Positions 910-20,023 of a stretch of 20,146 nucleotides of DNA are shown piece after piece. Source of the DNA: Abditibacteriaceae bacterium (GTDB taxonomy: Bacteria; Armatimonadota; Abditibacteriia; Abditibacteriales; Abditibacteriaceae); NCBI GenBank assembly GCA_031372065.1, contig JANMKN010000099.1, positions 1 to 20,146 on the forward strand, in the 5' to 3' direction. The notes under the pieces are model-generated. The model searched no databases. It saw only the letters and a list, made by a program, of their open reading frames with translations, and was not told the origin of the DNA. Positions within the stretch are counted from its first letter, which is position 1. The number at the start of each line of letters is the position of its first letter. The position numbers were made by a program, and so were the translations under genes.

Positions 910-1767
910 GTGACGGAACTTTTCGACCTCATTTCAACCAACGAACGTTTGACGAAAGGGCATGGCCCTGCACCCTTTCCTCCTCCCTACCCTGCCGAAA
1001 TTGTAGAGTTAGTTGTGCTTTCAGGGCGTGAAGCGCCGGGCGTATTGGCACCCGGCACCTATCGCTATGCGGCGATTGCGTTTTCTGGCGATGGGCAACG
1101 CGCGGCGCGGCGAGAAGCCCGCTGTTGTTGCGCCATTACAGAAGGGCAAAAACCAAGCATCGAAGCCTATACCACCGATTTAAACACGGTTGGTTTTGAG
1201 ATTTATCGGCAAGACGCTGATGAACCGAAAGAATCAACTGCATGGCTTCTTGTTGCGCGCCAGACGGGGCGCCACATCACCTTTGCAGATGATGGCAAGG
1301 CTCCCGGCGAGGCACTTTCGGTCGGGACTCAAATTGATTTGCTGGTTCACAAACATTCTCTGTTAAAGGCCACCAAAGAAGATGCTCTAAGCGGTGGGCG
1401 CTTTCTGCTGGATCACATAATGCGTTCGCTTGATGGTGAGATTCTGGCTACGGAAAAAACTCTGGCCCAACTCAAAACCCAATTCAGTCGTGAGATTCTA
1501 CATTTGATGATTTTCCAAGCGAATACAGCGGAGCTAAAGGCTTTCGTTCATCCGCAATCTTGTTCTGAGGGCGCGCTCTATGATTTGGCACTCGTTGAAT
1601 TGAATATGCGCCATGAGCTAAATAGCAATGAGACAACCAAACAAGAGGATTCCGACGAAGAATACGATGAAGATGATCGTGTTTTGGGCATTGAGAAAAT
1701 CCCGCACAGGCTTAAAGAGAGAAAACCTCCATTTCGCGCTTTGCGCAATCGTAGGAAATTGCCATGA
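910..1767 (+). CDS. Hypothetical, putative virion protein with FN3/Ig-like beta-sandwich domain
   Basis: Pattern GTYRYAAIAF..G ... GFEIYR ... LVA ... TFADDG resembles phage FN3-like domains; stop overlaps the next ATG (ATGA); LTKG and LLKA motifs flank the domain. Confidence 0.7.
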   Translation: MTELFDLISTNERLTKGHGPAPFPPPYPAEIVELVVLSGREAPGVLAPGTYRYAAIAFSGDGQRAARREARCCCAITEGQKPSIEAYTTDLNTVGFEIYRQDADEPKESTAWLLVARQTGRHITFADDGKAPGEALSVGTQIDLLVHKHSLLKATKEDALSGGRFLLDHIMRSLDGEILATEKTLAQLKTQFSREILHLMIFQANTAELKAFVHPQSCSEGALYDLALVELNMRHELNSNETTKQEDSDEEYDEDDRVLGIEKIPHRLKERKPPFRALRNRRKLP

Positions 1768-4700
1768 AATTTACAGTGCCTCTTGCCCTGTTTTTGAATC
1801 TAACCGAGAAGGTTGATTCTTTTCAAAAATCTATTTGCGCCGGGGAGCCTCCGTCTGGCTCTCCTGAAACGCCTTTTGCTGGCAGCAGCCATATGCCGCT
1901 GCTGCTGCTCGTCAACGAATTTTCCAAAGGTATCGGGTCGCGGCGCAATAATCCCCGCTTACAGCGTAAAAAAGTGTTGGTGCATGGCGCACAGGGCAAC
2001 TTGTTTTACGCCGAACGCTTGGTCGCACCTGATGAGTCGGCTGCATCGGGGTTTCAATTGCCGGAAGCGGGCAACACGCCACGTGTGCGGCAACGAAAAA
2101 GCGACAATGCCGCGCCGGTTTCGACCTCGGCGCCGGTGTCACAATCAAAGACTCAATCAACGTCAACAACTTCGACTTCGCCACCATCGTTATTTGATTG
2201 GGCCAACCAGCAAAAGCCGCAATTTACGCCACGCCCGAAAAAGGCAACGGGGCTTGCGCATTCATCCAATTCGCAAACCTCAACACTTTCACTTTTTGAT
2301 TTAATAGATGAGGGAGAATCGAGTAATGCAACCACAACTGGAAACGGGGCCGTCGTTACCAACGGAAGTGATGACAGCACAAGGCCCAGTCAAAATGCCG
2401 CTCATGACGAATCTGGACGAATGGGGCCGGGAGTTCGTGCGGACATGGACGCGCTGCCAACCGGAGACGGTAGCGCAGTGGATCAAGGACGGGACGCTGG
2501 GGCAGAGAGCGCGCGAGGCGCAGGAAGCGATGGCGGAGGAGATTTCGCTTCTGGTGGAACAGGGATTGACACTGCACGAAGCGAAGCACGACGCGACGAA
2601 GAAATATCTTCAGCCACCGGAAACGGAAGCGGAGATGCCGCAAGCGGAGATGCCGCACACGGAGAAGTAGAAGCGATGCCCGCCAAACGCACGGCACCGA
2701 AAGTTGCGGCGCGTGGCCTGAGCGACACCCAAAACAATGATGCCGATTTGGTTTTGACCGATGCCGACGAAATCGGCAAAGGATCGCTCGGCCAAAAGGC
2801 GAAAGACAACTTCGCGGCGTTGGATTTGTTGAAGCAGCTTGAAATTGAAGAGCGTGAACCTACCGATGCCGAAAAGCGCGTTTTGGCACATTATGTGGGC
2901 TGGGGCGCGTTCGGCCAAGCGTTTCAGGACGCTTTTGAACCCTATGCTGATGTCGAATGGAAGGACATCAGCGGCCACATCAAAACCTATCGTTTCAGTG
3001 GCGCTGATAAAGCGCACTTTGAGCTTTACAAACAAATCAAGTCACGTTTGACCGATGAAGAATTTGCCAGCGCGCGCGCTTCGATTAAAAATGCGCACTA
3101 CACAGCGCCGCCCGTTGTAAAAGCCATCTGGTCGGCATTGCAGCATATGGGCTTCACTGGCGGGCGCGTGCTGGAGCCTTCGATGGGAACGGGCAACTTT
3201 TTCGGGTTCATGCCGCCGGAGCTAACAGCGCGCAGTCGGCGCACCGGCGTTGAACTTGATCAAGTCACCGGCAAAATGGCGCGTTATTCGTATCCCGGCG
3301 CGCAAATCCACATCAAAGGTTTCGAGGAAACTCCCCTACCCGACAATCAATTCGACGTGGTGGTTGGTAATGTGCCCTTTGGCGATTATGGTGTCATTGA
3401 CCACGATTATGTCAAGCAGGGCCGTAAATTCTTAACAAGCCGCGTTCACAACTACTTTATTGCCAAAAGCATTGATAAGGCTCGGCCCGGCGGCATAATA
3501 GCCATCATCACATCGGCGGGCACTTTGGATGCCCGCACCGCGCAAGGCGTGCGTGAGGCGTGGGCTGATAAAGCGCATTTTCTGGGTGCGATCCGTCTGC
3601 CTAATACGGCCTTTGAAGAGAATGCCGGCACGCGGGTAACTACCGATATTATCTTTCTCCAGAAGAAAGACCCTGCTTTTGAAGCGTTGCACCCGCGCGA
3701 TGCAGAGGGGCATTTCATCGAAAAGTGGACGGAATCCGTTCCTGTGCAAGTGCGGCATAAAGATGACAAAGATGGCACTGGCCCCGACTACGCTGTGCAT
3801 CTCAATGAATATTTTCAAGCGCATCCCGATAATATGCTCGGCAAGTTGGCTGTCGGCGGCGGGCTTTACAACGACAAGCAAAGCGCTCTTGAAAGTGATG
3901 GGCGCGATATGGCTCTTGCTTTGGATGATGCTATTTTGTCGTTGCCTTCTGACATTTTTTATCGCCCCGAAGATGAAGCGGAGCGCGATGCGCAGGATCA
4001 ATTAAAACTGGCTGATGAAAGTATTAAGCCGGGCGCGTTTCACTTTGAAGATGGTGAAATCTACCAGAATCGCAACGGCCATCTGATGCCGGTTGATGTG
4101 AAAGACGCTAAAGAACGCAAGCGTCTGATGGGCCTCTGGCATCTGTGCCGCTCCTCCAAGGAACTGCTGGCCTCAATGTATGAAGATGTGCCCAATGAGG
4201 TGATTGAAGCGAAGCAGCAGCTTCTTAATCAGGCGTATGACAACTTCGTGCGCGAATTCGGGGACTTGCATAAGCGGCCCAACGTGCGCGCTTTCTGTTC
4301 TGACCCTGACGCTGGTTTGCTGCTGGCTTTGGAACACGCTGACCGCGAAACCGGCGCGATTTCCAAAGCGGACATTTTCTCGCAACGCACTATTACGCCC
4401 CACTCCACCGCCGAAACTGCATCTTCACCGCAGGATGCTCTGGGCATTGTTTTAAACGAATGCGGCGAACTGGATTGGCGGCGCCTCAGCGAACTGCTCA
4501 ATCGTGAGCCTGAAGGCATTCGTGATGAACTGGCCGGGGCCGGTCTTATCTTCCGTGACCCCGAAAAGGAAACCGACCCCGTTACCGCTGGTTGGGTGAC
4601 GGCTGATGCCTATTTATCGGGCGAAGTCAAGCAAAAGCTAAAAACCGCACAGGCCATTGCGGAAGTGGACGCTTCGTATAAGCCAAACATCGAAGCGCTC

Positions 4701-7700
4701 GAAGCGGTTCAACCACAGCCGCTTTTACCCTCGCAAATCGAAGTGCGGCTCGGCGCGCCTTGGGTGCCACCGCAGCACGTCAATGACTTCATCACGCATA
4801 TAGTGGGAACTGGTTACAGCAAGGATTTGGTGCAGTTTTCTAAGCATCTGGGCTGGACCATCAACGCGCTCGACCAATGGGATGCGCGGCGCGACAACGC
4901 GGCCATGACCAGCGCGTGGGGCACGCCTTCCATCAACGCCCTGAAAATCCTCGAAGCCACGCTCAATATGCGTGATGTCACGCTGACCAAACCTGACCCT
5001 AACGACCGGGAAGGTAAAAAGCGCGTCACCGATGTGGCGGCCACGCTCGCCGCGCGCGAGAAGCAGCGCCTTTTGAAAAATGAGTGGAAAAGCTGGATTG
5101 AAAATGATGCGGCGCGCCATGCGGGTTTGGCGGACCTTTACAACGAGATTTTCAACACAACGGCGCCGCGCGCCTTCGACGGATCTCATTTAACTTTTCC
5201 CGGCATGGCTGCTGGTTTTGCCAAAGGTTTTCGACAGCACGCAAAAAACGCTGTCTGGCGCGCCATTCAAACCGGCAACTGTTTGTTCGATCACGTTGTC
5301 GGCGCCGGTAAAACCGGCTGCATTGCTGCTACCACGATGGAACTGCGCCGCTTGCGTTTGGCAAAAAAGCCGATGATTGTGGTGAGGAATCCCCAGCTTG
5401 AGCAATGGGAGCGGGAATTTCGGGAAATCTATCCAAACGCCAAACTGCTGGTTATCAATGAAGGCATGGGCAAAGCCGAAAAGCGCCGGGAACTTACGCA
5501 TAAAATCGCGACAGGTGACTGGGACGCGGTCATCGTCGCGCAAAGCACTTTCAAAGAAATGCCTGCCTCGCCGCGCTTGTATCACGAGTTCATCGAAGAA
5601 CAATTGTGGGAATTACGCGCCGCGTTGGAAGAAGAAAATCAGCGTGCCTCAGCGCAAAACGGCAAAAAGAAATCGCGCTCACAGAAGAACATCGAAAAAT
5701 CCATTGCCAGCTTGGAAATCAAGCTGAAAACCATGCAGGCCGATGTCACAGAACATCAGGATCGCGGTTTGTATTTCGATGAGATGGGCGTGGATGCCCT
5801 GCTGGTAGATGAGGCGCACGACTACAAAAATTTGTTTTTCGCCACCAAGATGAACCGCGTTGCGGGCCTCAATAGTTCTTCATCGGAAAAGGCGATGGAC
5901 TTGTTTGTGAAGTCGCAAAATATGCTGAAGAAAAATAATCAGCGCGGACTCATCTTCGCCACTGGCACGCCGGTTAGCAATACGCTGGGCGAAATGTATA
6001 CGATGAAGCGCTATTTGATGCTGCCAAAACTCAAAGATTTGGGCTTTGACCGCTTCGACTCGTGGGCCGCGACTTTTGGCGATACGGTGACTTCGATTGA
6101 AAAGGCGCCTGAAGGCGGATTTCGACAACGCACGCGCTTTGCAAAATTCGTCAATGTGCCGGAAATGGTCGGCCTGTATCGTCAAGTCGCGGACGTGAAA
6201 ACCCGCGATGATTTAAAGGATATTTTGCCAACGCCTGCGCTCGATGGCGGCGAACCGAAAATCGTCACGGCGCCCGCCTCACCTGAACTCAAAGCCTACA
6301 TGGAAACGCTGCAAGAGCGCGCGAAAATTCTTCAAGTCGGCGATGAAAACGGGCGGCGCCCCCTGCCCAGCGAAGATAACTTTTTGCTGATTACCTCAGA
6401 TGGCCGCAAAGCCGCTTTGGATTTGCGTTTAATGGTGCCGGGCGCGCCAGATAATTCTCATTCCAAAGTCGCCAAATGTGTGGCGAATGTGGCACGCATT
6501 TACGGCGAAAGCAGTGACCGCAAAGCAACCCAGTTGGTATTTCTGGACATGGGCACGCCGACTGGCGAAGCAAATAAGGGAGCAAATAAAAAGTCCAAAC
6601 CCGCCAAAGTCATTGTGAAAGGCGCGGCCAAAGGTTTACCTGATGTTGATAATGATGATCTTGCCGATGACAATGACGAAGGTTTGGACGCGGAAGAACA
6701 GCGTTTGGTGGGCAGTGTTTACGATGACATCAAGCGAAAACTCATTGCCGCCGGCGTGCCCGAAAAAGAGATCGCTTTCGCGCATGATTTCAACACGCCC
6801 GCGCGCCGCAAGGAAATGAGCCGCCTGATGGATACCGGGCAGTTGCGCGTCCTAATCGGCTCTACTTCCAAAATGGGCGTTGGCCTCAATGTGCAGCGTC
6901 GCCTTTATGCTAATCATCATTTGGATTGCCCTTGGAAGCCCGGCGAACTGGAACAGCGTGATGGGCGCATCCTGCGCCAAGGGAATATGCATCACGAAAG
7001 CCAGTGGGATATTCCCGTTCAGATTTATCGCTACGGCACAGAAGGCTCGTTCGATGAATATATGTGGCAAGCTGTAGCAAAAAAGGCGGCGTTTATTGCT
7101 CAGACGCGGCAAGGCGAGTGCGCACGAACCTGCGAGGACATGGACGAAACTGTCATGACAGCCTCTTCCATGCAGGCGGCGCTTTCGGATAATCCGCTGA
7201 TGGGCGAAAAGGCGCAAGTGGACTCTGATGTTTATCGTATGACCCAATTGCGCAAAGGCTACCTTGATAATCGCTTTCGCGTGCAACGCCAATTGGCCGG
7301 TTTGCCCCGACAGCGCGACGAGGCGCTCAAAGACGCCGAAGACCGGGAACTGGCGGCTGTTCACTTCGATAAGCATCGTCAGGAGAAATTCTCGCTGATG
7401 GTGAACGGGCAGGTTTATGATGATCGCCACGAAGCGGGCGTGGCTCTTTCGCACGCTCATGAAGCCGTGTTAGACGCGCTCGATCATCCGCCGTATGAAG
7501 CGAAAATCGGTCACTATCAAGGCTTTGACATCTATGCACAAGTCGCACCTGACCAATGGAGCGAGTTTGACCCGCTGGTTTCCAATCTGGCCTATCAACT
7601 GCGCACGCCGGACGGCAAGGGAAAGCGTTGGTTACACGCGGGCAGTTCAGCCGCTTCAACCACAACCAAAATTGACAACACGCTGAAAAACTACGCTTTT

Positions 7701-8192
7701 GATGCTGCCGATGCGCGCCGCCACGCCGAAACGCTGTCCCAGCATATCGCGGAATTCAAGGCGATTGTGGATAAGCCGTTCGAGCATCAGGAACAATTGA
7801 ATGCTGCTGTCAAGCGTCAGAACGAAATTGACGCCGAACTCGCCAAAGGCAGCGATGCCGATACCGCTGTGGCAGACGAAGAAACTACAAACGATGCGGC
7901 TGGCGACACTAAAGTTGAAGGGGCGATTGTGGAAGACAAATTGACCAAATCCGTGGAAAGCCACTCAATGTTTGGCAATGGTCTATTGCGCTTGATGAAG
8001 GCCCTCAGTGCTACGGGCCGGGGCCGCTTGGTGGACGGAAACTTTGAATATGTGCCGCCTGAAATCCGCCAAAAGGAAGAAAATCAGCAAAAACAGTTCG
8101 CCGATCTTCGCTTGCTCTCGTCGCAGTTTGAAATCGTAAACAGATTTCCAAATGCGTTACCAAAGGAGTTTTCTCGTGAGCAAATATTATGA
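1764..8192 (+). CDS. DarB-like protein: N6-adenine DNA methyltransferase + SNF2-family helicase, with a long low-complexity N-terminal leader
   Basis: MTase motif I RVLEPSMGTGNF and motif IV GNVPF; helicase Walker A HVVGAGKT, Walker B VDEAH, ATGTP, motif VI QRDGRILRQGN; same architecture as phage P1 DarB and ICE MTase-helicases. Confidence 0.92.
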   Translation: MKFTVPLALFLNLTEKVDSFQKSICAGEPPSGSPETPFAGSSHMPLLLLVNEFSKGIGSRRNNPRLQRKKVLVHGAQGNLFYAERLVAPDESAASGFQLPEAGNTPRVRQRKSDNAAPVSTSAPVSQSKTQSTSTTSTSPPSLFDWANQQKPQFTPRPKKATGLAHSSNSQTSTLSLFDLIDEGESSNATTTGNGAVVTNGSDDSTRPSQNAAHDESGRMGPGVRADMDALPTGDGSAVDQGRDAGAESARGAGSDGGGDFASGGTGIDTARSEARRDEEISSATGNGSGDAASGDAAHGEVEAMPAKRTAPKVAARGLSDTQNNDADLVLTDADEIGKGSLGQKAKDNFAALDLLKQLEIEEREPTDAEKRVLAHYVGWGAFGQAFQDAFEPYADVEWKDISGHIKTYRFSGADKAHFELYKQIKSRLTDEEFASARASIKNAHYTAPPVVKAIWSALQHMGFTGGRVLEPSMGTGNFFGFMPPELTARSRRTGVELDQVTGKMARYSYPGAQIHIKGFEETPLPDNQFDVVVGNVPFGDYGVIDHDYVKQGRKFLTSRVHNYFIAKSIDKARPGGIIAIITSAGTLDARTAQGVREAWADKAHFLGAIRLPNTAFEENAGTRVTTDIIFLQKKDPAFEALHPRDAEGHFIEKWTESVPVQVRHKDDKDGTGPDYAVHLNEYFQAHPDNMLGKLAVGGGLYNDKQSALESDGRDMALALDDAILSLPSDIFYRPEDEAERDAQDQLKLADESIKPGAFHFEDGEIYQNRNGHLMPVDVKDAKERKRLMGLWHLCRSSKELLASMYEDVPNEVIEAKQQLLNQAYDNFVREFGDLHKRPNVRAFCSDPDAGLLLALEHADRETGAISKADIFSQRTITPHSTAETASSPQDALGIVLNECGELDWRRLSELLNREPEGIRDELAGAGLIFRDPEKETDPVTAGWVTADAYLSGEVKQKLKTAQAIAEVDASYKPNIEALEAVQPQPLLPSQIEVRLGAPWVPPQHVNDFITHIVGTGYSKDLVQFSKHLGWTINALDQWDARRDNAAMTSAWGTPSINALKILEATLNMRDVTLTKPDPNDREGKKRVTDVAATLAAREKQRLLKNEWKSWIENDAARHAGLADLYNEIFNTTAPRAFDGSHLTFPGMAAGFAKGFRQHAKNAVWRAIQTGNCLFDHVVGAGKTGCIAATTMELRRLRLAKKPMIVVRNPQLEQWEREFREIYPNAKLLVINEGMGKAEKRRELTHKIATGDWDAVIVAQSTFKEMPASPRLYHEFIEEQLWELRAALEEENQRASAQNGKKKSRSQKNIEKSIASLEIKLKTMQADVTEHQDRGLYFDEMGVDALLVDEAHDYKNLFFATKMNRVAGLNSSSSEKAMDLFVKSQNMLKKNNQRGLIFATGTPVSNTLGEMYTMKRYLMLPKLKDLGFDRFDSWAATFGDTVTSIEKAPEGGFRQRTRFAKFVNVPEMVGLYRQVADVKTRDDLKDILPTPALDGGEPKIVTAPASPELKAYMETLQERAKILQVGDENGRRPLPSEDNFLLITSDGRKAALDLRLMVPGAPDNSHSKVAKCVANVARIYGESSDRKATQLVFLDMGTPTGEANKGANKKSKPAKVIVKGAAKGLPDVDNDDLADDNDEGLDAEEQRLVGSVYDDIKRKLIAAGVPEKEIAFAHDFNTPARRKEMSRLMDTGQLRVLIGSTSKMGVGLNVQRRLYANHHLDCPWKPGELEQRDGRILRQGNMHHESQWDIPVQIYRYGTEGSFDEYMWQAVAKKAAFIAQTRQGECARTCEDMDETVMTASSMQAALSDNPLMGEKAQVDSDVYRMTQLRKGYLDNRFRVQRQLAGLPRQRDEALKDAEDRELAAVHFDKHRQEKFSLMVNGQVYDDRHEAGVALSHAHEAVLDALDHPPYEAKIGHYQGFDIYAQVAPDQWSEFDPLVSNLAYQLRTPDGKGKRWLHAGSSAASTTTKIDNTLKNYAFDAADARRHAETLSQHIAEFKAIVDKPFEHQEQLNAAVKRQNEIDAELAKGSDADTAVADEETTNDAAGDTKVEGAIVEDKLTKSVESHSMFGNGLLRLMKALSATGRGRLVDGNFEYVPPEIRQKEENQQKQFADLRLLSSQFEIVNRFPNALPKEFSREQIL
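2326..2670 (+). CDS. Nested (+1 frame) 114-aa ORF inside the DarB-like gene; TnpV/DUF1896-like helical protein
   Basis: GAGGGAG (2310-2316) 9 nt before ATG 2326; amphipathic globular-looking sequence (WGREFVRTW...PETVAQWIKDGTL...LVEQGLTLHEAKHDATKKYLQPPE), while the host frame here is G/D/S/A-rich low complexity. Confidence 0.6.
   Translation: MQPQLETGPSLPTEVMTAQGPVKMPLMTNLDEWGREFVRTWTRCQPETVAQWIKDGTLGQRAREAQEAMAEEISLLVEQGLTLHEAKHDATKKYLQPPETEAEMPQAEMPHTEK
2627..2656 (+). repeat. 15-bp exact tandem duplication AAGCGGAGATGCCGC x2
   Basis: 2627-2641 and 2642-2656 are identical; length is a multiple of 3, so both overlapping frames are preserved. Confidence 0.9.
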
Positions 8193-9531
8193 CCCCTTTT
8201 GCCCCAATTTAAGCAAGGCTGTGGCCTCTGGTTATCCCCTGCAAGGCCGGTTGAATTTTCAGGGTTTGAAGATTTCAATTGAGAATCGCAAGGGTTCTTA
8301 TCGCGAAGACAAGCATCACTCGCCTCCAAAATGGCGCAGTAAAATGTTTTGTCACTATGGCTACGTCAAAGGCAGCGAAGGCGTAGACGGCGATCATGTG
8401 GACGTGTTCGTGGGGCCTAATCCGGGCGCAACGCACGCTTACATCATCACGCAAGTGAAACCCTACAGCGGCGAATTTGACGAGCAGAAAATCATGCTCG
8501 GTTTTGATTCGGCCAAAGACGCCAAAGAAATGTATATGCGGCATTATGATACACCCAAATTCTTCGGCGGCATCGCGGCCATGCCGATGGCAGAATTCAA
8601 AAGCAAGGTGATGCACACGCTACACGGCTCCAAACTGATTAAATCGGTGTCAGGCAAGCCTTATTCGCCTACTTTATGCGCTGCCCTACTCTGCAAGGCC
8701 ATCGTGGTCGGTGGTGGCGAGGATTGCCCGCATTGCGGTGCCAGTATGGAGCGCGGCGACGATGGGAAATGCAACCGCTGCTTAAAACCGTGGCCGGCGG
8801 CAACCTTAGCCGTGCCGCACCCAGACGCCGATGGAGGCTGTAAAGGCAATTGCCCGCACTGCGGCACAACGATATTCGCTGATTCGGGGGAGAAACGCCG
8901 TCTTTGCCATCAATGCAGAGCGCCGTTTGACGTGATTCCGCAAGGCAAAAGCTACAGGTTGGAACCTCTCAAAAAATCGGTGGCCGCATTATCACAGGAG
9001 ACGATAGGGGCCTTGGGCAGTGTGAAATGGGTTTTGCCTTCGGCGTTTGAATTGGGCAAGGGCATCGGAGAAGAACTCGCCAAAAGTTTTAAAAGCCTCG
9101 AAGCCAAATTAGCGCCGTTCGGTTTAGGCTTGACTGACTTTTTGAAGAAACCGGATGATTCATATTATCCGCTTCCTGAAGGTGAACCGGTCATTTACAC
9201 CACGCCGGAAGTGCGACGTATTGTTTTAGCGCACGCCATGCAAGCTGCCCTGAAAATCACTCAACATCCTAAAGCGGTTATCGAAGTTGCGCGCGCGCGT
9301 CTGGCGCAAGGCGAAAGCATCGCCAATCAATTCTACGGCGGCGGGGTGGGAATGGAAAATCATCTGGCGATTTTGGCGGCCATTGAAATGACACCGACAG
9401 AGTTTCGTTTAGCTCTGGCGCGCTTGAAAGGTGAAATCACAAATGAACCGACGGACGAACTTGTGGACAGTGAGGCAGTGATCAGTGAAACACTCGCGCC
9501 GGAATTAGCGCCGGGCGAAATTGCGCTTTAG
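8176..9531 (+). CDS. InPase (inorganic pyrophosphatase-like) domain protein with two Zn ribbons
   Basis: GTG 8176 after AAGGAG; signature GLKISIEN.KGS.R...W...M..HYGYV.G..G.DGDHVDVFVGP...FDEQKIMLGF; CPHC..CNRC and CPHC..CHQC pairs. Confidence 0.85.
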   Translation: MSKYYDPFCPNLSKAVASGYPLQGRLNFQGLKISIENRKGSYREDKHHSPPKWRSKMFCHYGYVKGSEGVDGDHVDVFVGPNPGATHAYIITQVKPYSGEFDEQKIMLGFDSAKDAKEMYMRHYDTPKFFGGIAAMPMAEFKSKVMHTLHGSKLIKSVSGKPYSPTLCAALLCKAIVVGGGEDCPHCGASMERGDDGKCNRCLKPWPAATLAVPHPDADGGCKGNCPHCGTTIFADSGEKRRLCHQCRAPFDVIPQGKSYRLEPLKKSVAALSQETIGALGSVKWVLPSAFELGKGIGEELAKSFKSLEAKLAPFGLGLTDFLKKPDDSYYPLPEGEPVIYTTPEVRRIVLAHAMQAALKITQHPKAVIEVARARLAQGESIANQFYGGGVGMENHLAILAAIEMTPTEFRLALARLKGEITNEPTDELVDSEAVISETLAPELAPGEIAL

Positions 9532-12609: not shown

Positions 12610-13224
12610 CGTTGGCTCCGGCCATGTAATACGGCCTTTCTTGCGCGCCTGAAGGAAAAAGCGTTTGCGCGCTGTGGCCGCGCCGAAATAGGCGGAATTC
12701 AAAACCCGGTAATCCACCTTGTAACCGCGAATTTTGAGTTGCTTTATCCAGTTTTTGAAAAACAGCCCCTTCTTTTCAGGAATCGGACGCCCGCGTTTTT
12801 TCTCATCGGAATGATCGTCAGGATACAGCGGCCCCCAGTTCATGAACTCCGGCACGTTTTCGACGAGAATGTTATCAATGTTGACTTCCTCGGCCCAGCG
12901 AATGACACACCACGCCGTTGCCCTACTCTGCTCGTTCATGGGCTTGGCGCCTCTGGCTCTGGCGTGATGAGTGCATTCCGGCGCGAACACGGCAAAATGC
13001 AGATGGCCGTCCGGCACAATTTTGCGGGGCCAAACGGAATCCAAGTTCTCGCACCAGTGGCGCACGTTAGGATGATTCAGCGAATGCGTTTCAATGGCGG
13101 TGGCCCAGTGGTTTACGGCATCCACTTCGATGTTAATACCCAGTTCCTCGCACGCTTCCAATAAACCACTTGTGCCACCTCCTGCTCCGCAAAAGAAATC
13201 TCCGGCTTTGATAGTGATTTTCAT
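12568..13224 (-). pseudogene. DNA cytosine-C5 methyltransferase, N-terminal half (truncated)
   Basis: Motifs I (DFFCGAGG), IV (PEC), VI (ENVPEF) and VIII (TARKRFF) present; ends about 12 aa after WPEPTH with no TRD or motifs IX/X; ATGA coupling at 13221-13224. Confidence 0.8.
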
Positions 13225-13517
13225 CGCTTGGCCTCGCTTGTGGGTAAACAAAGATGCATCCATGTTTCTTGTCCCCAATGCTGCCAGAAACGGTCATTCC
13301 AATCCGTGGCGCTCTCGCAATTGGGGCAAACGCCGGTATTGGTGCTGTGCCACCGGGGGCCAAACATCCATGTTGTTCCGGGGTGTGTCTGCTGACGGGC
13401 ATCGCACATGGCGCATACATCAGATTTCTCAGATGTGGAGTCAGGTTGGATAATGTCTTTGCAGACGCGGCATACAGCAATGGCTTGAAGCGATTCGTCG
13501 TTCATTAAATGGCTCAT
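13221..13517 (-). CDS. Hypothetical Cys-rich protein, 98 aa (three CxxC pairs)
   Basis: AGGAGG before ATG 13517; CRVC, CAMC, CPNC; stop coupled to the MTase start. Confidence 0.7.
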   Translation of the reverse strand: MSHLMNDESLQAIAVCRVCKDIIQPDSTSEKSDVCAMCDARQQTHPGTTWMFGPRWHSTNTGVCPNCESATDWNDRFWQHWGQETWMHLCLPTSEAKR

Positions 13518-13674
13518 AACGGCACCTCCTGAACTTCACGCGGATATGAATCCGCGATGCTTGGCAGCTCGTCCACGCATCGCGCACGGCTTGCACCAAA
13601 TGAGGCACTGCATCGCGTGTATAACTGTTTTCCGCCACCTGTTTTTCCAGTGCCTCTAACTCATGACTCCACAT
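13441..13674 (-). CDS. Small hypothetical protein, probably frameshifted near 13573 (likely original stop at 13514-13516)
   Basis: AAGGAG before ATG 13674; as read it overlaps the next gene by 77 nt, while a one-base shift gives a stop coupled (ATGA) to ATG 13517. Confidence 0.5.
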   Translation of the reverse strand: MWSHELEALEKQVAENSYTRDAVPHLVQAVRDAWTSCQASRIHIRVKFRRCRYEPFNERRIASSHCCMPRLQRHYPT

Positions 13675-14155
13675 GGGCAGTCTCCTTGTTTGTCAGTTTG
13701 GCGATGATCCGCAGTTTTTCTGCATAACAAAGTGCTACTTCGCGCAAATCATTCAATGATGTCTGATGCTCTTCATGCCAACGGGCGTGATAGGCGACGT
13801 GATCTGAAGCGGGCAAGGCGGCGATTTCCGTTTCAAATAAAGCGCGATCTGTGGGCGAACCGGATAGGGTGCTTTCCAAACAAGTGATAAGCGCCGCGCA
13901 CTCGTTTTCTACGACAGAGGCAAGGGCTTGCTCGAAGGTCTGGCCGAATTGATGAAAAAACCATTTGTCGTGCCCGCCAATCAGGAAGATTGGCATATCG
14001 AGCCTTTCACTGGCGTGATCACTTTCCTGCGGGTCTTTGACTTCGCGCAGTGCATACGCCCCTGCCCCGATGAGGCTACAGGCAATGCACGCGACACGAA
14101 AATCGTCGGCGCGTAGCGTGTAAGGGTTGGATGGGTTGATAATTTCAAACAGCAT
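13661..14155 (-). CDS. Hypothetical protein, 164 aa
   Basis: GAGG before ATG 14155; short overlaps with both neighbours; begins MLFEIINPSNPYTL. Confidence 0.75.
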   Translation of the reverse strand: MLFEIINPSNPYTLRADDFRVACIACSLIGAGAYALREVKDPQESDHASERLDMPIFLIGGHDKWFFHQFGQTFEQALASVVENECAALITCLESTLSGSPTDRALFETEIAALPASDHVAYHARWHEEHQTSLNDLREVALCYAEKLRIIAKLTNKETAHVES

Positions 14156-15263
14156 AACTTGATACCTCGCTAATCTCGTTTGCTTCTCTTGGAAGTTCGC
14201 GCACTCTTAAATCTGCGGGCCATTCGTCCATGTCGCCGCCATGCAAATCGTGCGGGTTCCATGTCCATGAATTGCTGGCGGCGTTTTGGGAAAGCCTCGC
14301 TCGGTTGCCTTCGCGCTCATCAATGTGCGTGGCATCGTTGTCGCTGACGATGACCGTGCGGCCCAATTGCTTGACAAAAACCGGCACCTCCGCTTTGCGG
14401 CACTGGGCAATCGTTGAACGAATCGTCGAAAGGTCACAAGGCCGCGCGCCCGTGCCTGATTCGCCGCCGACAACGATTTGGTCAATGCGCCCCGGCATAT
14501 CACCGTGATTCACAAAACCGTTTGCGCGACTTTTGTTCATCCAAAAACCACGGCGTAAAACATCTACCGAATGCATCTTCGGCCATTGGATGGCAGAAAA
14601 GTCCACCGGCTTCAAAGCCGGCTCATAGGAAATCCACTGCACGCTGGCGGGCGTTTGCATCAAAAGCGGTAAGCGCTCATTCGCCGAGTCTTGGTCTTCG
14701 ATGCTGACGCCTAAATGAAGATTGCGAAGCGGCCAACCTACGTTTACATCTGGATGCAAACAACCTTCGACGGCGTTGCCGGCAAAGGCCCATACTTCCT
14801 CGCCAAACTCGTTCATCGCGGCGGCGGCGATAACCTTGTCCCACTGGACATCGCGTGTGAAATATTCCAGCATACGCTCCGGCCTTTTCGTGAGGACTTT
14901 GTATTTGTGGCGGGCCGTCATTGCCACAACAGCCAATGTTTTATCAATGAAATCGAATGGCACATCTTCGTGGAAAAGGTCGCTCTGGCTCGTCACAAAA
15001 ACCGTCTGAGGCTTTTTCCAGTGCAACGGGTCTTCAAGGCGTTCAGGCACCGTGCGCACAAGGCCCGTCCAGTTCAAATTGCCGCCTTTGGTCTTTTCAA
15101 CAAGGCCCTGATAAAGCGGCCCCACTTTGGGGTTGGGATTGTGACCAAGGCGCCACGCAGTTTTGATGGCGTAGCATAATTTGCAGCCGTCGGATTTTTT
15201 GTCACAACCGAGCGTGATGCCCCACGACATCGTGGCCCACTGAATGGGCGTCTTCGAACTCAT
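14145..15263 (-). CDS. Phage Gp37/Gp68 family (DUF5131), radical-SAM-like protein
   Basis: IQW..SW....GCDKKSDGCKLCYA (Cx6Cx2C), SDLFHE, VLTKRPER, LGVSIEDQ, SYEPAL, VVGGESG.GARP, PVFVKQLG; ATGA coupling at 15260-15263; AGGAG RBS. Confidence 0.93.
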   Translation of the reverse strand: MSSKTPIQWATMSWGITLGCDKKSDGCKLCYAIKTAWRLGHNPNPKVGPLYQGLVEKTKGGNLNWTGLVRTVPERLEDPLHWKKPQTVFVTSQSDLFHEDVPFDFIDKTLAVVAMTARHKYKVLTKRPERMLEYFTRDVQWDKVIAAAAMNEFGEEVWAFAGNAVEGCLHPDVNVGWPLRNLHLGVSIEDQDSANERLPLLMQTPASVQWISYEPALKPVDFSAIQWPKMHSVDVLRRGFWMNKSRANGFVNHGDMPGRIDQIVVGGESGTGARPCDLSTIRSTIAQCRKAEVPVFVKQLGRTVIVSDNDATHIDEREGNRARLSQNAASNSWTWNPHDLHGGDMDEWPADLRVRELPREANEISEVSSYAV

Positions 15264-16567
15264 GATCTTGTCTCCTGTGGTTTTTGGTTTCCTTGTGGCT
15301 TGGTGATAATACGAATACTGCAATGCTGATTAAGGCGCCGCACGCCCTTTGATTGGCGGTGATGTGCGTCCTTTTCGCGCATTTTTACAAGGTGCCGCTG
15401 AATTTGTTCCCAAGTCCAGCGCGGCCCCAGCGTGGCAACGTGTTCAATAATGCGATTGCGCGCCCGCGTCCTAATTGTCTTTTCGCGCCGTTGAGCCTGC
15501 TCAACCACAGGACGCTTTTCCTTGAGGTATTTGACGTGGTTGGCGATTTGCGGCCATGTGCGCTGTGCCCCTTTTTCCGCAACCTGTTTCACGATGAGGT
15601 TGCGACGGCGCGTGATAGCGGCTTTTTTGCCTCGTGGCATCCAGTGCGTTGTATTGGGAGGCAGACCATCGGGAGCCGCGCCTTTGTCCAGCATCGCTTC
15701 AAGATACTCGTCTTGCTTTTTGGTGAATAGAGAGTGCTTTAATTCTAAATTCACCGGCTTGGGACGCGGCCAGCGCGGTGAATCATATTCGGTCAAAAGC
15801 CACTCGGTTTGTTCCTTGGTAAAGCAAGTGCGTCCTTTGGTCGGATTCATAAAATGCAAGCGCATTTTTCCCGCTTTAACCCCGCCCACGCCATGATGAC
15901 GAGCAACTTTGCCGACTTTGGGAATATCCCATCCGGTAACACGTTCGAGTGCCGTGGCAGGCCACGTTTGCCAGCAATACTTGAGAAATTCCACCATCAG
16001 CGGCGAGGCGTTGTGAACCTTATCGCCGAGCGGCCCAAACTTTTTCCAGTATTTTTGCAAAGCGCGTGGTTTGGCTGGACGCGGATCGGCAAGGGAACAG
16101 CGCGACCAACGTAGGGATGTGACTTCCTGTTGTCGGTTGCAAAAGACGACGACATTCGATTGTGGCGTGGCGCCTTTGAAATCCGTTGCCATCTGAATCG
16201 AGCCATGCCGGCACCGCAAACAACCGATTTGCGCGCCGGGCGGGGCAGGGGGGAAAAGTTCCGGCGGCACATGGGAGGCGCCACTTTCGGCGGTGGATAA
16301 CACGCGCGCAAGGCGCTCTCGCGCATAAGCGTTCTGGCAATCACGACAAAAGCAACGATAACCATCGTTGCTTTTGGCCGCGCGCGCCCATTTGGTTTCG
16401 AGCGATTTCCACACACCACACTTGTGACAGTATTTTTCGCCACGTTGCAGGTGGAACAGCACACCTTCGCGCGTGGCCTCAATCTTTTCGGCAAGATCAG
16501 CGATTTGCTTTTCAGTCAAATTGAGCATGGGGATCTCTTGTGTGAAATCTTCTGTTGGTTGGCTCAC
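15260..16567 (-). CDS. Putative multi-domain DNA-binding protein (C4 Zn finger, HTH-like and duplicated Myb/SANT-like segments)
   Basis: GTG 16567 after GGAGG with GTGA coupling; KYCHKC...DG...CRDC; repeats FTKEQTEWL/FTKKQDEYL and RTWPQIANHV/WTWEQIQRHL; basic composition. Confidence 0.75.
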   Translation of the reverse strand: MSQPTEDFTQEIPMLNLTEKQIADLAEKIEATREGVLFHLQRGEKYCHKCGVWKSLETKWARAAKSNDGYRCFCRDCQNAYARERLARVLSTAESGASHVPPELFPPAPPGAQIGCLRCRHGSIQMATDFKGATPQSNVVVFCNRQQEVTSLRWSRCSLADPRPAKPRALQKYWKKFGPLGDKVHNASPLMVEFLKYCWQTWPATALERVTGWDIPKVGKVARHHGVGGVKAGKMRLHFMNPTKGRTCFTKEQTEWLLTEYDSPRWPRPKPVNLELKHSLFTKKQDEYLEAMLDKGAAPDGLPPNTTHWMPRGKKAAITRRRNLIVKQVAEKGAQRTWPQIANHVKYLKEKRPVVEQAQRREKTIRTRARNRIIEHVATLGPRWTWEQIQRHLVKMREKDAHHRQSKGVRRLNQHCSIRIITKPQGNQKPQETRS

Positions 16568-16914
16568 GCTGATTTGCCTCCCTTTTCTGATAAATCGCAA
16601 TCCGCATAATGCAGCGCGCAATCATGCGAGAAGTAGCTGTCGGATTCCACGTTCAAATTGGTGCAAAAGCGAATGGTTTGCTCTCCTTTGGCAATGGTTT
16701 CCGCGCACTGGCGGCAACGGATGCGGCCCGATGATGCCTCGACTTCGGCCCGGCCAATCTCGAAAATCGTCCCGGCGCCGACGTTGCGGCGATAACCGGC
16801 GTGAATATGGCCGCGAATGATGCCCGCGCTACGGCTTGAAATTGTCGTGAATTTTTCCGCGCGCTTTTGGCGGGTCAGTCGGGTAGGGTGCAAGTTGGAA
16901 ATTTTGGTGGTCAT
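16564..16914 (-). CDS. PARP-type zinc-finger-like protein, 116 aa
   Basis: ASSGRIRCRQCAETIAKGE..I.F...LHYADC matches the A.SGR..C..C...I.KGE.....H..C pattern; the start choice (ATG 16914) is uncertain and has no clear RBS. Confidence 0.65.
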   Translation of the reverse strand: MTTKISNLHPTRLTRQKRAEKFTTISSRSAGIIRGHIHAGYRRNVGAGTIFEIGRAEVEASSGRIRCRQCAETIAKGEQTIRFCTNLNVESDSYFSHDCALHYADCDLSEKGGKSA

Positions 16915-16921
16915 GTCTTTG

Positions 16922-16966
16922 AAAACCTGTTGGTGAATTTTTGCAGGGGGAAACACTTCCCCTGCA
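16922..16966 (-). promoter_or_regulatory. Minus-block intergenic motif (copy A) plus adjacent inverted repeat
   Basis: AAAACCTGTTGGTGAATTTTTGCAG (16922-16946) is 24/25 identical to 17873-17897; TTCCCCTGCA (16957-16966) is also shared. Confidence 0.7.
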
Positions 16967-16994
16967 CCATCGCTTGCAGATCTGCCAATTGCGC

Positions 16995-17120
16995 TCAGTA
17001 GCGGCGCTCTGTGCCGCGTCCGCCGCAACGGGGGCAAGAGCCGCCGCCATCCTCGCTAATGTGGTCTAATTCGTCTTCCGGCAGTTCGTCGTGGTCATGT
17101 TCACCATAAAATCGGGGCAT
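16995..17120 (-). CDS. 41-aa acidic peptide with a single CxxCxGxG motif (not in ORF track)
   Basis: AAAAAGGAG 6 nt before ATG 17120; MPRFYGEHDHDELPEDELDHISEDGGGSCPRCGGRGTERRY*. Confidence 0.6.
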   Translation of the reverse strand: MPRFYGEHDHDELPEDELDHISEDGGGSCPRCGGRGTERRY

Positions 17121-17145
17121 ATTCGTCTCCTTTTTGTCGCCATGA

Positions 17146-17175
17146 GGGGCCGGACTTGATTTTTAGTCCGGCCCC
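17146..17175. other. 11-bp GC-rich hairpin after the SWIM gene (terminator, pause or RNA-stability element)
   Basis: GGGGCCGGACT / AGTCCGGCCCC with an 8-nt loop; no U tract follows on the - strand. Confidence 0.6.
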
Positions 17176-17185
17176 GCTGTCGTTT

Positions 17186-17785
17186 TCAATCGAAATAGCT
17201 GTTGTAATCCCAATCGCCATTAGGCAGATAACCGGGCTTCAATTCGCCGGTTTCGGGGTCAATGTGAGGCGGCACCGCAATTTTTTCAACAGGCGAGGCT
17301 TGCGCGTGGGTGAGATGCAAAACCTTTTCAGCATCGCGCCGCAGTTCGCCGCGCCGCACGCAACCTTCAATGAACCGCTCCAAATGCTTGCAATGCAAAA
17401 GCGGCGTTTTGATGCTAATCGTGATGCCTAATTTCTTGGCAGTGGGGTTCAAGCGATAGAAAGAATGCTCGCAGTTGCAACGGCATTCGCCCGTTACAAG
17501 GTCAACTTCGGGGCGATGTTCAATGCCTTCATCGGCGCGTGTGAATGACTTGGTGACGCCACAAGCGATTTCGGGCGTGGTTTCGGCGCGGCGAACACGA
17601 CGGCGAATTGGGGTAGGGTTGTAAGAGCGGGTTTTGCGGTGCGGGCGGACAAAGGTGTCATACGGGCCGCGCCGTGTCTCGTTGTTGGCAACGGCGGAGC
17701 CGACGACGGGCTTTTGGGTTGGTGCGACTTGTGTTGTCTCTTGCGTTGCGGCTTGCGTTGTAACGTCTGTCTGTTGATACTTCAT
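17186..17785 (-). CDS. SWIM zinc-finger protein, 199 aa
   Basis: C.CNCEHSFYR ... HCKHL (CxCx(n)CxH); GGAG upstream of ATG 17785. Confidence 0.8.
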   Translation of the reverse strand: MKYQQTDVTTQAATQETTQVAPTQKPVVGSAVANNETRRGPYDTFVRPHRKTRSYNPTPIRRRVRRAETTPEIACGVTKSFTRADEGIEHRPEVDLVTGECRCNCEHSFYRLNPTAKKLGITISIKTPLLHCKHLERFIEGCVRRGELRRDAEKVLHLTHAQASPVEKIAVPPHIDPETGELKPGYLPNGDWDYNSYFD

Positions 17786-17872
17786 CTTGAATCAATTCTC
17801 CAATCCGGTTTTGGTTACGATTGAGGCGCCAACTTTTCCAGAGTGGGGCGCCTTTTTCGTTTTACACTTCTA

Positions 17873-17927
17873 AAAACCTGCTGGTGAATTTTTGCAGAAA
17901 TTTACATGAAAATTCCCCTGCAAAAAT
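17873..17927 (-). promoter_or_regulatory. Minus-block intergenic motif (copy B) plus 10-bp inverted repeat
   Basis: AAAACCTGCTGGTGAATTTTTGCAG (17873-17897); IR ATTTTTGCAG (17888-17897) / CTGCAAAAAT (17918-17927). Confidence 0.7.
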
Positions 17928-17933
17928 ATCTTT

Positions 17934-18608
17934 TTATTTTTCCTTTTGCGGCAACGTTTCTTGTGGCGTCCCTTGTGGCGTTCGGGCTTTCAAATCTGTC
18001 AAGGCGAAATCAATTTCGCACGCCATTTGCGTGGTCTGGCAATGAATCCAGCGATAAGTTGAGGCGAAAAACGCCACAAGATCGCAGTGCCATAAAGCCG
18101 CATCTTGGGGTGGGTTGGCATCAAAGGAATGGTTGAGATAATTGCCGATTTGCGGCAATAGGAAATCAAAGTGATGGATTGTTTGCTTTAGCTTGTAATG
18201 ACGGCGCGCGCGCCATGCCGACGGGCTTTGGGCCTCGTATAAAACTGTGAAGTCGTTTAATTCCAGTGCCCCAAAGGTATTGTTCCAGCGTTGGAGAAGT
18301 TCGCTTTCAGAGGGCACCCGCGTAAATAGTTCAACAGGCCAGAAATTGACGACAATTGGCTCTATGCGGCTCATCAGACGAATCAAGCATTCATCAAGGC
18401 GTTGTAACTGCTGTGTTAGAAAGGCACTTTCAGCAGGCTGCTGTGTGGGCATTGTTGCGCTTCGGGGGACAGGATTAGCATTTGCCCCCGCATTCACCCC
18501 CGTATTCACCCCCGCAGTGGCATAGCCGTTAGTGACAGGAGACTGACCGCCGGTGCGGAATCTGTTATGGAATTCGTCATGGAATCCGTTTTGGTTGTGT
18601 TGACTCAT
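17934..18608 (-). CDS. Hypothetical protein, 224 aa, low-complexity N-terminus
   Basis: First ORF of the - strand block, divergent from the protease gene; no family recognised. Confidence 0.7.
   Translation of the reverse strand: MSQHNQNGFHDEFHNRFRTGGQSPVTNGYATAGVNTGVNAGANANPVPRSATMPTQQPAESAFLTQQLQRLDECLIRLMSRIEPIVVNFWPVELFTRVPSESELLQRWNNTFGALELNDFTVLYEAQSPSAWRARRHYKLKQTIHHFDFLLPQIGNYLNHSFDANPPQDAALWHCDLVAFFASTYRWIHCQTTQMACEIDFALTDLKARTPQGTPQETLPQKEK
18479..18514 (+). repeat. Three imperfect 12-bp tandem units encoding GVNT-GVNA-GANA
   Basis: CATTTGCCCCCG CATTCACCCCCG TATTCACCCCCG. Confidence 0.8.
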
Positions 18609-18658: not shown

Positions 18659-18705
18659 CCCATTTGTATTTGTCGTGATTCACAATTCTGATTTACAACT
18701 TGATG

Positions 18706-18750: not shown

Positions 18751-18766
18751 CATTCTACATTGATGT

Positions 18767-18784
18767 TGTGAACCATGGTTCACA
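18767..18784. promoter_or_regulatory. 18-bp perfect palindrome TGTGAACCATGGTTCACA (copy 2)
   Basis: Identical to 416-433; 100 nt upstream of the protease ATG. Confidence 0.75.
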
Positions 18785-18883
18785 TTACAGCAAAAAACAG
18801 CACATGAAAACAACATGGAAACCAATCCCAATAAAAATTGAATTCATTGGATTCGATTAATGACCTGATGCCGGAGGCCAAAC

Positions 18884-20023
18884 ATGGCCCTGCCCGTTCC
18901 CATTCCGCCTGTAGAATTTGCCCATGAAGCAGCGTATGCAGCCGTGCATCCAGTAGCTTATGCAAATGAGCCAGTGCGCGAGATCGAAATTTATTTAGAG
19001 CTTCAAAAAAGCCATGTAGATAAAAAAACCGGGCGCATTTGGGTTCGCGGTGTAGCGACGGATAACAGTGTTGATTTTCAGAATGACATCGTTCAGATTT
19101 CGCAGATCGGGACAAACCTCTCTATCCTTAACCGGGGCTGGGGCAAGTTCAATTTTGAGCATCACGATGAAAAAGTCGGCGAAATTACCCGAATTGCCTT
19201 TATCTCGCCGGCAGAAGCGCGTGCCAAATACGGCGTTGAGTGCAGCGGAACAGTGTTGGAGTTGGAAGGATTTATCTATGCGGTCACTGACAAAACGCCG
19301 GAAAAATCGGATGTGCGCGAAGTTCACAGACTTATTGACGTGGACGCGCGACTGGGTTTTTCGCTGCAAGGCGGCATCGTGCAACGTATTCCTGTGCAAG
19401 GCAAGGATGGTAAGACTTACAAAGTCGCTGTGCCTTCGTTCGTAAACCTCTGCGCGATTACGACGCAGCCAGTCAACATGAACACGATTTGCCTGCCGTT
19501 TGCCAAATCGTTAGCCGCTGTTCTCTGTGAAGGCGGCTTAAGCGAAGCAGAGTGGGCTGTGGTCAGCGAGGCCAGTGAAGCAGATGGCGGGACTGCCTCC
19601 GGGACGAATAAACCGGCGCCGATGCTGTTCATGGGCGACGGGGCCGGGGTAGACGATTTGATTAAATCGCTGGTGGGAGCGGCATTGGCCTCAACCGGTG
19701 GTCAGGCTTTAGTGGGCGCTTTAGGCGGTGACAGCGTGCGTATGGGGGCCGTAGACCCGAAAAGCGTGGACGACACAACTGACGACAAGAAATCTGCAAA
19801 ATGTCACAAATGTGCCACTTCCTTGAGTAAAATGACGAAGTTCTGCCCCGAATGCGGTGCGGCGCAAAGCAGTGCGCAAAGCACGATGCAGCCGGAATTA
19901 AAAAAATCGCTGGTGAATGCCTCGGCTGGATTTTCCCAAAACTTTGGCATCTCGGAATGTGAACAGGCGATAGACATCATAATGGCGGCGCAAATTTTCA
20001 TGAGCGCTTTGGGTCGCAATTGA
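18884..20023 (+). CDS. Prohead (head maturation) protease with a C-terminal Zn ribbon
   Basis: GGAGG RBS; VRGVAT...VDFQND, FNFEH (putative catalytic His), LGFSLQG (putative catalytic Ser), AITTQPVN..T; CHKC...KFCPECG. Confidence 0.85.
   Translation: MALPVPIPPVEFAHEAAYAAVHPVAYANEPVREIEIYLELQKSHVDKKTGRIWVRGVATDNSVDFQNDIVQISQIGTNLSILNRGWGKFNFEHHDEKVGEITRIAFISPAEARAKYGVECSGTVLELEGFIYAVTDKTPEKSDVREVHRLIDVDARLGFSLQGGIVQRIPVQGKDGKTYKVAVPSFVNLCAITTQPVNMNTICLPFAKSLAAVLCEGGLSEAEWAVVSEASEADGGTASGTNKPAPMLFMGDGAGVDDLIKSLVGAALASTGGQALVGALGGDSVRMGAVDPKSVDDTTDDKKSAKCHKCATSLSKMTKFCPECGAAQSSAQSTMQPELKKSLVNASAGFSQNFGISECEQAIDIIMAAQIFMSALGRN

Follow-up and report, generated by a model that had tools for sequence, protein, structure and literature searches.

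A hydrophobic-x-Lys motif in the head gene block of an Abditibacteriaceae-associated phage as the probable cleavage signal of its own prohead protease

Trimming of head components by a prohead protease is a familiar principle, known from T4, phiKZ-like phages, P1 and HK97, and its occurrence in one more phage would not surprise a phage-assembly specialist. The gp21 protease of T4 autoprocesses and the T4 cleavage rule places the cut after Glu in Leu/Ile-x-Glu sequences, the capsid-targeting signals of T4 lie in N-terminal leaders, and the herpesvirus assemblin has self-release sites. In HK97 the gp4 protease cuts gp5 at K103|S104. Here we analyse a stretch of 20,146 bp from an Abditibacteriaceae bacterium (the window), which is one whole contig of an assembly of 410 contigs and 6.1 Mb (the source genome, G000). 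It encodes a 379-aa protein (18884–20023, + strand) that we assign to the prohead serine proteases, and in this protein, as well as in a DarB-like methylase-helicase, an InPase protein and a 285-aa open reading frame (ORF) coded upstream of it, the motif [LF]xK[SAG] (Leu or Phe, any residue, Lys, then Ser, Ala or Gly) recurs. A sequence-only reading of the same DNA had proposed that the motif marks the sites at which the protease matures a set of head-packaged cargo proteins.

The closest described arrangement is the head module of the Herelleviridae (portal, prohead protease, gp85 and Cps in Listeria phage A511; also Bacillus phage BPS10C). Our locus shares with it the gene order portal, protease, acidic scaffold-like protein, capsid protein, and a homologous protease, tblastn giving 27–28% identity over residues 34–212 to the annotated Herelleviridae prohead proteases. 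The sites that flank the protease core are also present in A511 (LEKS, FMKS) and in BPS10C (FAKS). In the RefSeq record NC_009811 the mature peptide of the A511 capsid protein starts at residue 24 (ALK|SFTTG, that is K23|S24), which bears out the Lys-Ser cut that the sequence-only reading had quoted, and this bond aligns with LEK45|G46 of our capsid protein. The two modules differ in several respects. The host lineage is probably Abditibacteriaceae here and Firmicutes there, the phage here is of about 100 kb, its protease has a zinc-ribbon tail, and giant polyvalent enzyme genes, interrupted by a reverse-strand methylase cassette, stand between portal and protease. The capsid protein is a remote relative only (phrog_752); its tblastn search against phages matched Yersinia phage fHe-Yen8-01 alone and nothing in the Herelleviridae.

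With T4 the locus has in common the fold of the protease and, by analogy, it would share a logic by which one protease processes itself, the scaffold and the capsid propeptide and also takes the leaders off the cargo that is ejected; the cut predicted here is, however, after Lys and not after Glu, and the candidate cargo consists of multi-domain enzymes of 450 to 2100 aa with sites at tails and junctions too. HK97 gp4, another prohead serine protease of this fold class, cleaves between Lys and Ser, in line with the cut predicted here, but HK97 has no separate scaffold or cargo, and no Pfam protease family, Peptidase_S78 and the U35 type included, matches the window protease at E ≤0.01 or, Peptidase_S78 again included, any of 20 sampled homologues, so that our protease was classed by its fold and context and not under a Pfam family.

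For the cargo the nearest parallel is the Dar system of phage P1, in which DarB (about 250 kDa) is packaged in the head, its first 30 residues being enough to serve as the signal that targets it to the capsid, while the capsid protein is cut at E120|S121 by a Glu-type rule (PMC9024508); the excerpts of that paper make no mention of DarB cleavage. The window codes for a DarB-like methylase-helicase (phrog_10089, E 0), but its gene lies inside the head module and its product bears Lys-type sites at either end. Among the polyvalent-protein modules of phages that are predicted to be packaged in virions, Iyer et al. (2017, PMC5512222) count the DarB-type dyad of methylase and helicase as well as the InPase domain; they also mention packaging of T4 Alt, and propose processing by a zincin-like MPTase domain within the polyvalent proteins. 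In contrast, Pfam-type profile scans detected no peptidase family in the cargo proteins of our phage, and the motif at their junctions matches the prohead protease.

We consider it probable, at roughly 0.7, that hydrophobic-x-Lys|[SAG] is the cleavage signal of the phage's own prohead protease, with the cut predicted after Lys, and that the cargo is trimmed too. The two halves of this reading deserve unequal trust: judged from sequence comparison, the motif very probably acts as a Lys-type cleavage signal for the protease, the scaffold and the capsid protein, while cutting of the cargo, in some at least of its leaders, tails or junctions, is slightly more likely than not. Within the phage, copies of the motif cluster in the gene block from portal to capsid.

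According to its synteny with the 100–107-kb contigs G023:C91 and G006:C4 of two related genomes, the window (contig C284) is a piece of a phage of about 100 kb, of which the remaining pieces in the assembly are C282, C246, C408, C38 and C370. The reverse complement of C246 shares an exact overlap of 141 bp with the start of the window, and the final 12 bases of the window (20135–20146, +) code for MKLF, the first four residues of the scaffold-like protein; the rest of its gene lies on C408, with the capsid gene after it. Because C246 and C408 flank the window in this way, the order of the head block can be given as portal (780 aa), proteins of 151, 374 and 769 aa, an SNF2-type giant, the plus-strand genes of the window, the protease, the scaffold-like protein (357 aa) and the major capsid protein (500 aa). 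The order portal, protease, scaffold, capsid is also found in the genomes G001, G023 and G006.

The four plus-strand proteins of the window contain 20 copies of the motif against 6.29 ± 2.43 expected from within-protein shuffles, and 20 was reached in none of 5000 shuffles. All 20 sites listed by the sequence-only reading are present where it placed them, its numbers for the InPase protein being lower by 8 on account of counting from the GTG at 8176. The excess is largest in the InPase protein (6 vs 1.12; 0 of 2000 shuffles) and the protease (4 vs 0.62), and smaller in the DarB-like protein (8 vs 4.0, P 0.045) and the 285-aa ORF (2 vs 0.47, P 0.08). The source genome shows no overall preference for the motif: the 4643 ORFs of at least 200 aa that served as background hold 2783 copies against 2845 expected (ratio 0.98; 1.4 sites per 1000 aa). 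Its reported near-absence from the minus strand stands as a count, with one match (LDKG) in the 2504 aa of ten ORFs, but the deficit is not significant (3.06 expected, P 0.18).

Since the motif had been picked by eye beforehand, it was tested on proteins that had played no part in the choice, namely the scaffold, capsid, 769-aa and SNF2 proteins. When the 4643 ORFs were ranked for the motif, the scaffold came first, the InPase protein seventh and the protease ninth. The entire head block has 47 sites against 14.8 expected, and the other phage ORFs (C282, C408 past the capsid gene, C38, C370 and the minus cassette of the window) have 22 against 23.2. Scans in which one motif position was varied at a time gave Lys as the sole strong outlier at the P1 position of the putative cleavage site in the protease, scaffold and capsid protein taken together (12 vs 1.4, z 8.8), and likewise in six cargo proteins (32 vs 11.8, about 2.7-fold, z 5.9; the next residue had z 1.8); in 46 other phage ORFs Lys at this position is unremarkable (36 vs 32.3). 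The cargo set alone shows a preference for L > I > F at P3 and for S, G and A at P1', in agreement with the logos of the protease family.

The scaffold-like protein carries six copies (LMKA, LAKS, LLKS, LSKS, LAKS and LKKS; 0.33 expected, P 1.4e-6), and its sites occupy the same alignment positions in four genomes, the proteins of which are only 41–54% identical. The N-terminus of the capsid protein (phrog_752, E 4.5e-32), where the sequence-only reading had recommended to look for the motif, does contain it twice, as FQKS at 14–17 and LEKG at 43–46. In an alignment of eight capsid proteins A511 K23 shares its column with LEK45|G46 of our phage, the other proteins having LSKG, LTKG, LSKA, LLKA, LTKA and VSKS there, so that Lys followed by a small residue stands in the A511 cleavage column in eight of eight; this match ties the motif to a real, annotated cleavage. 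Further upstream, FQK|S recurs in three of four close relatives, and cleavage there would be a second cut within the propeptide. The portal (C246, 9796–12138, − strand; phrog_11117, E 9.7e-12) carries the motif close to either terminus, as LAKA48 and LLKS89 and, behind an acidic low-complexity tail, as LGKS758; the two N-terminal sites are kept in G023 (LLKA57, LLKS93). Trimming of the portal by the protease is possible.

The identity of the 379-aa protein as a prohead protease, already put forward by the sequence-only reading, is supported by its fold, invariant residues and gene order; its activity on the capsid protein and scaffold is predicted from the motif statistics and the A511 alignment. 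The protein consists of a core (residues 44–209), a linker, a zinc ribbon and a helical tail, with the predicted self-sites LQK|S (19001–19012), FAK|S (19499–19510), LIK|S (19658–19669) and LKK|S (19898–19909) and the conserved residues Asp64 (19073–19075), His93 (19160–19162) and Ser160 (19361–19363), all on the + strand. Among the profiles, only PHROG 1028 'head maturation protease' matches it (E 3.9e-5). Its close homologues number only nine among 5.8 billion proteins, and a profile search of 1.84 billion cluster representatives gave 295 hits at E ≤0.001. Of 156 proteins considered, 38 that were partial or contained the zinc ribbon only were dropped, and the 118 with the protease core were analysed. 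Asp64 and His93 are present in all 118, Ser160 (the serine of the GFS sequence and, with His93, presumed to be catalytic) in 117, Lys208 in 116 and Lys42 in 114; a hydrophobic-x-K-[SAG] sequence lies no more than 8 residues from site 1 in 113 and from site 2 in 117. All nine close homologues keep K42, K208 and K341, and seven keep K261. The logo of site 2 is [LIFVM]-[AV]-K-S-[LFM], and the region after it has a median length of 146 residues but may reach 1211, many members of the family being fused to long C-terminal parts.

An AlphaFold2 (AF2) model based on the nine-sequence alignment was poor (pLDDT 44.7, weak Foldseek matches) and was replaced by a run with the 118 sequences, in which the core is confident (pLDDT >90 for residues 45–205). 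This core matches T4 gp21 (5jbl_A) with Z 11.1 and a root-mean-square deviation of 2.4 Å over 128 residues (model residues 44–195), and herpesvirus assemblins and proteases with Z 7–10; in the model the protease fold therefore fills exactly the stretch between the two conserved Lys sites, K42 and K208, an arrangement reminiscent of the self-release sites of assemblin and of gp21 autoprocessing. Searches of BFVD gave 129 matches at E ≤0.001, the named ones being prohead proteases. Foldseek of the good model against the PDB gave none at E ≤0.001, though the 20 best-ranked entries were herpesvirus proteases; at the sequence level, a profile search with the protease against the PDB yielded zinc-ribbon noise only, and a scan of viral contigs for the protease gave no relative.

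The pattern recurs in five other genomes and three named phages. In G023 the scaffold is the top-ranked ORF of its contig (6 sites vs 0.48 expected) and the protease the second (4 vs 0.58); the scaffold is also top-ranked in G006 (4 vs 0.38), the protease of which is 36% identical to ours, and the G022 scaffold has 6 vs 0.82. In G254, which represents another family of the phylum, a protease-scaffold fusion has 8 vs 0.94 and the capsid N-terminus also contains LLKA and LFKA. With the wider P3 set LFIMV used for two of the named phages, gp264 of BPS10C has 11 vs 1.84, and in Yersinia phage fHe-Yen8-01 gp004 has 6 vs 1.0 and the protease 6 vs 1.18; the gene order in both phages is as here. The ranking of the scaffold, the alignment of the capsid protein with A511, the gp21 fold and the flanking sites in 113 and 117 of the 118 representatives therefore make cleavage after Lys well supported by inference. 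Inside the prohead the protease would free its own core from the N-terminal leader and the C-terminal tail, cut up the scaffold at its six sites, shorten the capsid protein by about 45 residues and probably trim the portal ends. With lower confidence, the 769-aa, SNF2, DarB-like and InPase proteins, the genes of which lie between portal and protease, may be head-packaged polyvalent cargo, and the prohead protease may cut their leaders, tails and some domain junctions before they are ejected with the DNA.

The DarB-like protein (1764–8192, +; 2142 aa) is predicted to be packaged from its context, its gene lying in the head block between portal and protease. Its Pfam matches are N6_Mtase (residues 433–638), ResIII and SNF2-rel (1163–1356) and Helicase_C (1678–1740), the methylase being upstream of the helicase. 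The match to phrog_10089 'DarB-like antirestriction' spans residues 106–2050, so the sites FQKS20 (1821–1832), FSKG53 (1920–1931), LTKS2060 (7941–7952) and LMKA2077 (7992–8003) fall outside it; the fifth terminal site is LAKG2026 (7839–7850), and three more are in the core, FAKG1152 (5217–5228), FVKS1381 (5904–5915) and LRKG1829 (7248–7259), all on the + strand. The sequence FSK|GIGS, which directly precedes the first block of conservation, corresponds to LVK|AIRS in G023; LAKG2026 has its counterpart in LAKG2080 and LTKS2060, approximately, in LAKS2105. In G006 (G006:C4 8269–15018, −) the DarB position is held by a 2249-aa Strawberry-notch-type helicase (AAA_34, Helicase_C_4, DUF6908), which has sites 36 residues from its N-terminus and 20 from its C-terminus.

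The ORF of the InPase protein opens at 8152 and ends at 9531 (+), its probable true start being the GTG at 8176, which is preceded by AGGAG. The protein comprises the InPase domain (PF18823, E 4.5e-41, 140.3 bits against a cut-off of 26.8, residues 31–152; E 4.3e-40 in the G023 orthologue), two Cys4 zinc ribbons and a C-terminal domain, with the sites LSKA (8209–8220), LIKS (8635–8646), LCKA (8689–8700), LKKS (8968–8979), LGKG (9052–9063) and LAKS (9076–9087), all on the + strand. In ORF numbering from 8152, the InPase domain lies between the sites at 20–23 and 162–165 and the ribbons (C192–C255) between those at 180 and 273. LIK|S follows directly after the domain in the source genome and G023 alike, and the first residue of the G023 protein corresponds to the one after LSK| in ours. 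Across phages, 409 records include an InPase domain, and their annotation often reads minor head or portal protein.

The SNF2-type giant (about 1970 aa; 1890 aa in G023), also a predicted head cargo, starts on C246 and reaches the window with its C-terminal end (2–397, +; Pfam Helicase_C, E 1.5e-7). Its part on C246 has 10 sites against 3.88 expected, and its N-terminal sites are conserved in the source genome, G023 and G006: LSKA/LEKS/LEKS and LLKS/LHKS/IRKS precede the conserved RWITVHPHG domain in the three genomes, and LKKG/MKKS/LTKG stands about 20 residues ahead of the helicase module. Together with the 769-aa neighbour, in which a weak PBECR2 match was found, the SNF2 protein, likewise outside the original selection, has 15 sites against 5.4. 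In the distant relative G254 the SNF2-type giant (G254:C328 3515–9064, −) contains an intein (PF14890, E 5.8e-11) in the helicase region.

Leaders that end in the motif are found in the DarB-like (K22/K55), SNF2 (K110/K139), 769-aa (K28) and InPase proteins and in the 285-aa ORF (910–1767, +; LTKG 949–960, LLKA 1360–1371), and some of them are conserved. The placing of sites at domain borders, claimed from the sequence alone, agrees with the protease fold between K42 and K208, the InPase domain, the Cys4 ribbons and the ends of the DarB-like protein, whereas the label 'FN3-like' given to the 285-aa ORF was not confirmed: it has no Pfam or PHROG match, its Atlas scores do not exceed 0.85 and are leads only, and no orthologue was found in G023.

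Several points weigh against this explanation of the motif. P3 of the A511 cleavage is Ala (ALK|S), so the P3 rule is loose, and the extended motif with a hydrophobic P2' was defined on these same proteins. Site 1 of the protease is only 5–10 residues from the N-terminus in 5 of 114 homologues and may have a structural role instead of being cleaved. The DarB-like protein taken alone is marginal, and its three core sites, which lie in conserved helicase regions, are probably uncut. The G023 InPase protein is without the N-terminal leader, so this leader is not needed for packaging. The enrichment is weaker in the G023 cargo orthologues (16 vs 8.3) and in the cargo of G006 (13 vs 6.0), a broad set of ten G023 cargo ORFs is not enriched (20 vs 16.6, z 0.8), and an ordinary host protein, the molybdopterin oxidoreductase on C283, reaches a similar count (5 vs 1.3).

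The alternative that best withstands the data, which we nevertheless regard as unlikely, would confine cleavage to the morphogenetic proteins (protease, scaffold, capsid protein and perhaps portal), the copies in the DarB-like, InPase, SNF2 and 285-aa proteins being mostly chance or lineage-specific drift and staying uncut, packaged or not. It gains from the fact that the structural enrichment is 8- to 12-fold in every genome and that of the cargo only about 2- to 2.7-fold, from the behaviour of the broad G023 set and of the host protein just mentioned, and from many internal SNF2 sites of the source genome that are not kept in G023. It does not, however, account easily for Lys as the single P1 outlier in the cargo of the source genome, with P3 and P1' mirroring the logo of the protease family, for leader, tail and junction sites kept across two to three genomes at poorly conserved termini, or for the enrichment of the two cargo proteins that were outside the original selection. 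Processing of the cargo by the prohead protease is thus plausible but weaker than that of the structural proteins, and the interpretation offered by the sequence-only reading is, as a whole, partly supported.

It is much less probable that the motif is a docking or recruitment signal, by which the substrate groove of the protease or the scaffold would draw proteins into the prohead, with cleavage unneeded in most carriers. The copies in N-terminal leaders, the region that holds the capsid-targeting signals in T4 and in DarB of phage P1, and the closeness of protease site 1 to the N-terminus in some homologues would suit such a role, but the aligned capsid site is the annotated A511 cleavage point, six or more copies along the scaffolds fit degradation better, and the G023 InPase protein does without the leader. 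A degenerate four-residue pattern might owe its apparent excess to composition or to post-hoc choice, a suspicion natural enough for a motif defined after viewing the data and as frequent in the genome as this one. As far as sequence statistics reach, it is refuted by the shuffles, by the genome-wide ratio of 0.98, by the first rank of a protein outside the original selection and by the recurrence in other genomes, named phages and family representatives.

If the proposed rule of cleavage after Lys is true, it provides a testable cleavage code for a prohead protease family which has no Pfam model and is represented in the Herelleviridae, in a Yersinia phage and in phages of the Abditibacteria, a little-known lineage; it predicts the mature ends of the capsid, scaffold, portal and protease, and suggests how giant polyvalent anti-defence proteins are readied for ejection. 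What would be new is the extension by which the prohead protease, and not built-in metallopeptidases, dissects the polyvalent head cargo. A search of the literature for a Lys-type cleavage motif in the Herelleviridae or HK97 gave nothing usable, and the family-wide flanking sites may have been printed earlier. More tentatively, and with the odds somewhat against it, the large and mostly uncultured clade of tailed phages behind the 295 representatives may use one Lys-type prohead protease as a polyprotein processor, which would release itself at the two flanking sites and dissect polyvalent anti-defence proteins (DarB-like, SNF2, InPase) in the capsid, at leaders, tails and junctions, into separately ejected enzymes, in the role that Iyer et al. 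gave to built-in metallopeptidases. In practice the motif may help to annotate head modules and to pick candidate packaged proteins. The hope that the motif by itself would predict cargo genome-wide failed because of the background of 1.4 sites per 1000 aa, the top 25 motif-ranked ORFs being mostly non-phage; the position of the sites and the gene context are needed as well.

The plus-strand genes of the window also include a 124-aa ORF (512–886), to which no family was assigned, with 55% tblastn identity to a G023 ORF and no motif sites, as well as DUF6527 and a 140-aa ORF. The reverse-strand cassette (10809–18608, −) that breaks up the head module comprises a Dam-like D12 methylase (10809–11825), a C5 methylase (236-aa ORF, 12568–13278), DUF5131 (14145–15323), a 453-aa protein with an HNH/Lar-like zinc-finger N-terminus and several orphan ORFs. 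The C5 methylase looks split (12254–13278, −): the 236-aa ORF spans only the N-terminal part of PF00145, and the last 70 residues of a 405-aa protein of G023 are matched by an overlapping 123-aa ORF (12254–12625); the split may reflect a frameshift, a sequencing artefact or a strain artefact. The end of the window (20047–20146) and positions 1–100 of C408 are near-identical with several base differences, and the assembly break in the head module therefore probably results from co-existing strain variants.

Three contigs, C283, C205 and C330, had first been taken as phage pieces on one G023 match and were all removed from the phage control, C283 because its isocitrate dehydrogenase, molybdopterin oxidoreductase and Type ISP enzyme mark it as host chromosome; the motif counts in them were 14 vs 5.3, 1 vs 1.05 and 1 vs 0.71, respectively. 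No terminal repeats were found in G023:C91 or G006:C4. The 107-kb G023 contig opens with a homologue of a Type ISP restriction-modification enzyme (G023:C91 3187–8064), the counterpart of which in the source genome (C283 7204–9987) belongs to an ordinary contig of the chromosome, so that the G023 phage may be integrated or may carry host-like defence genes.

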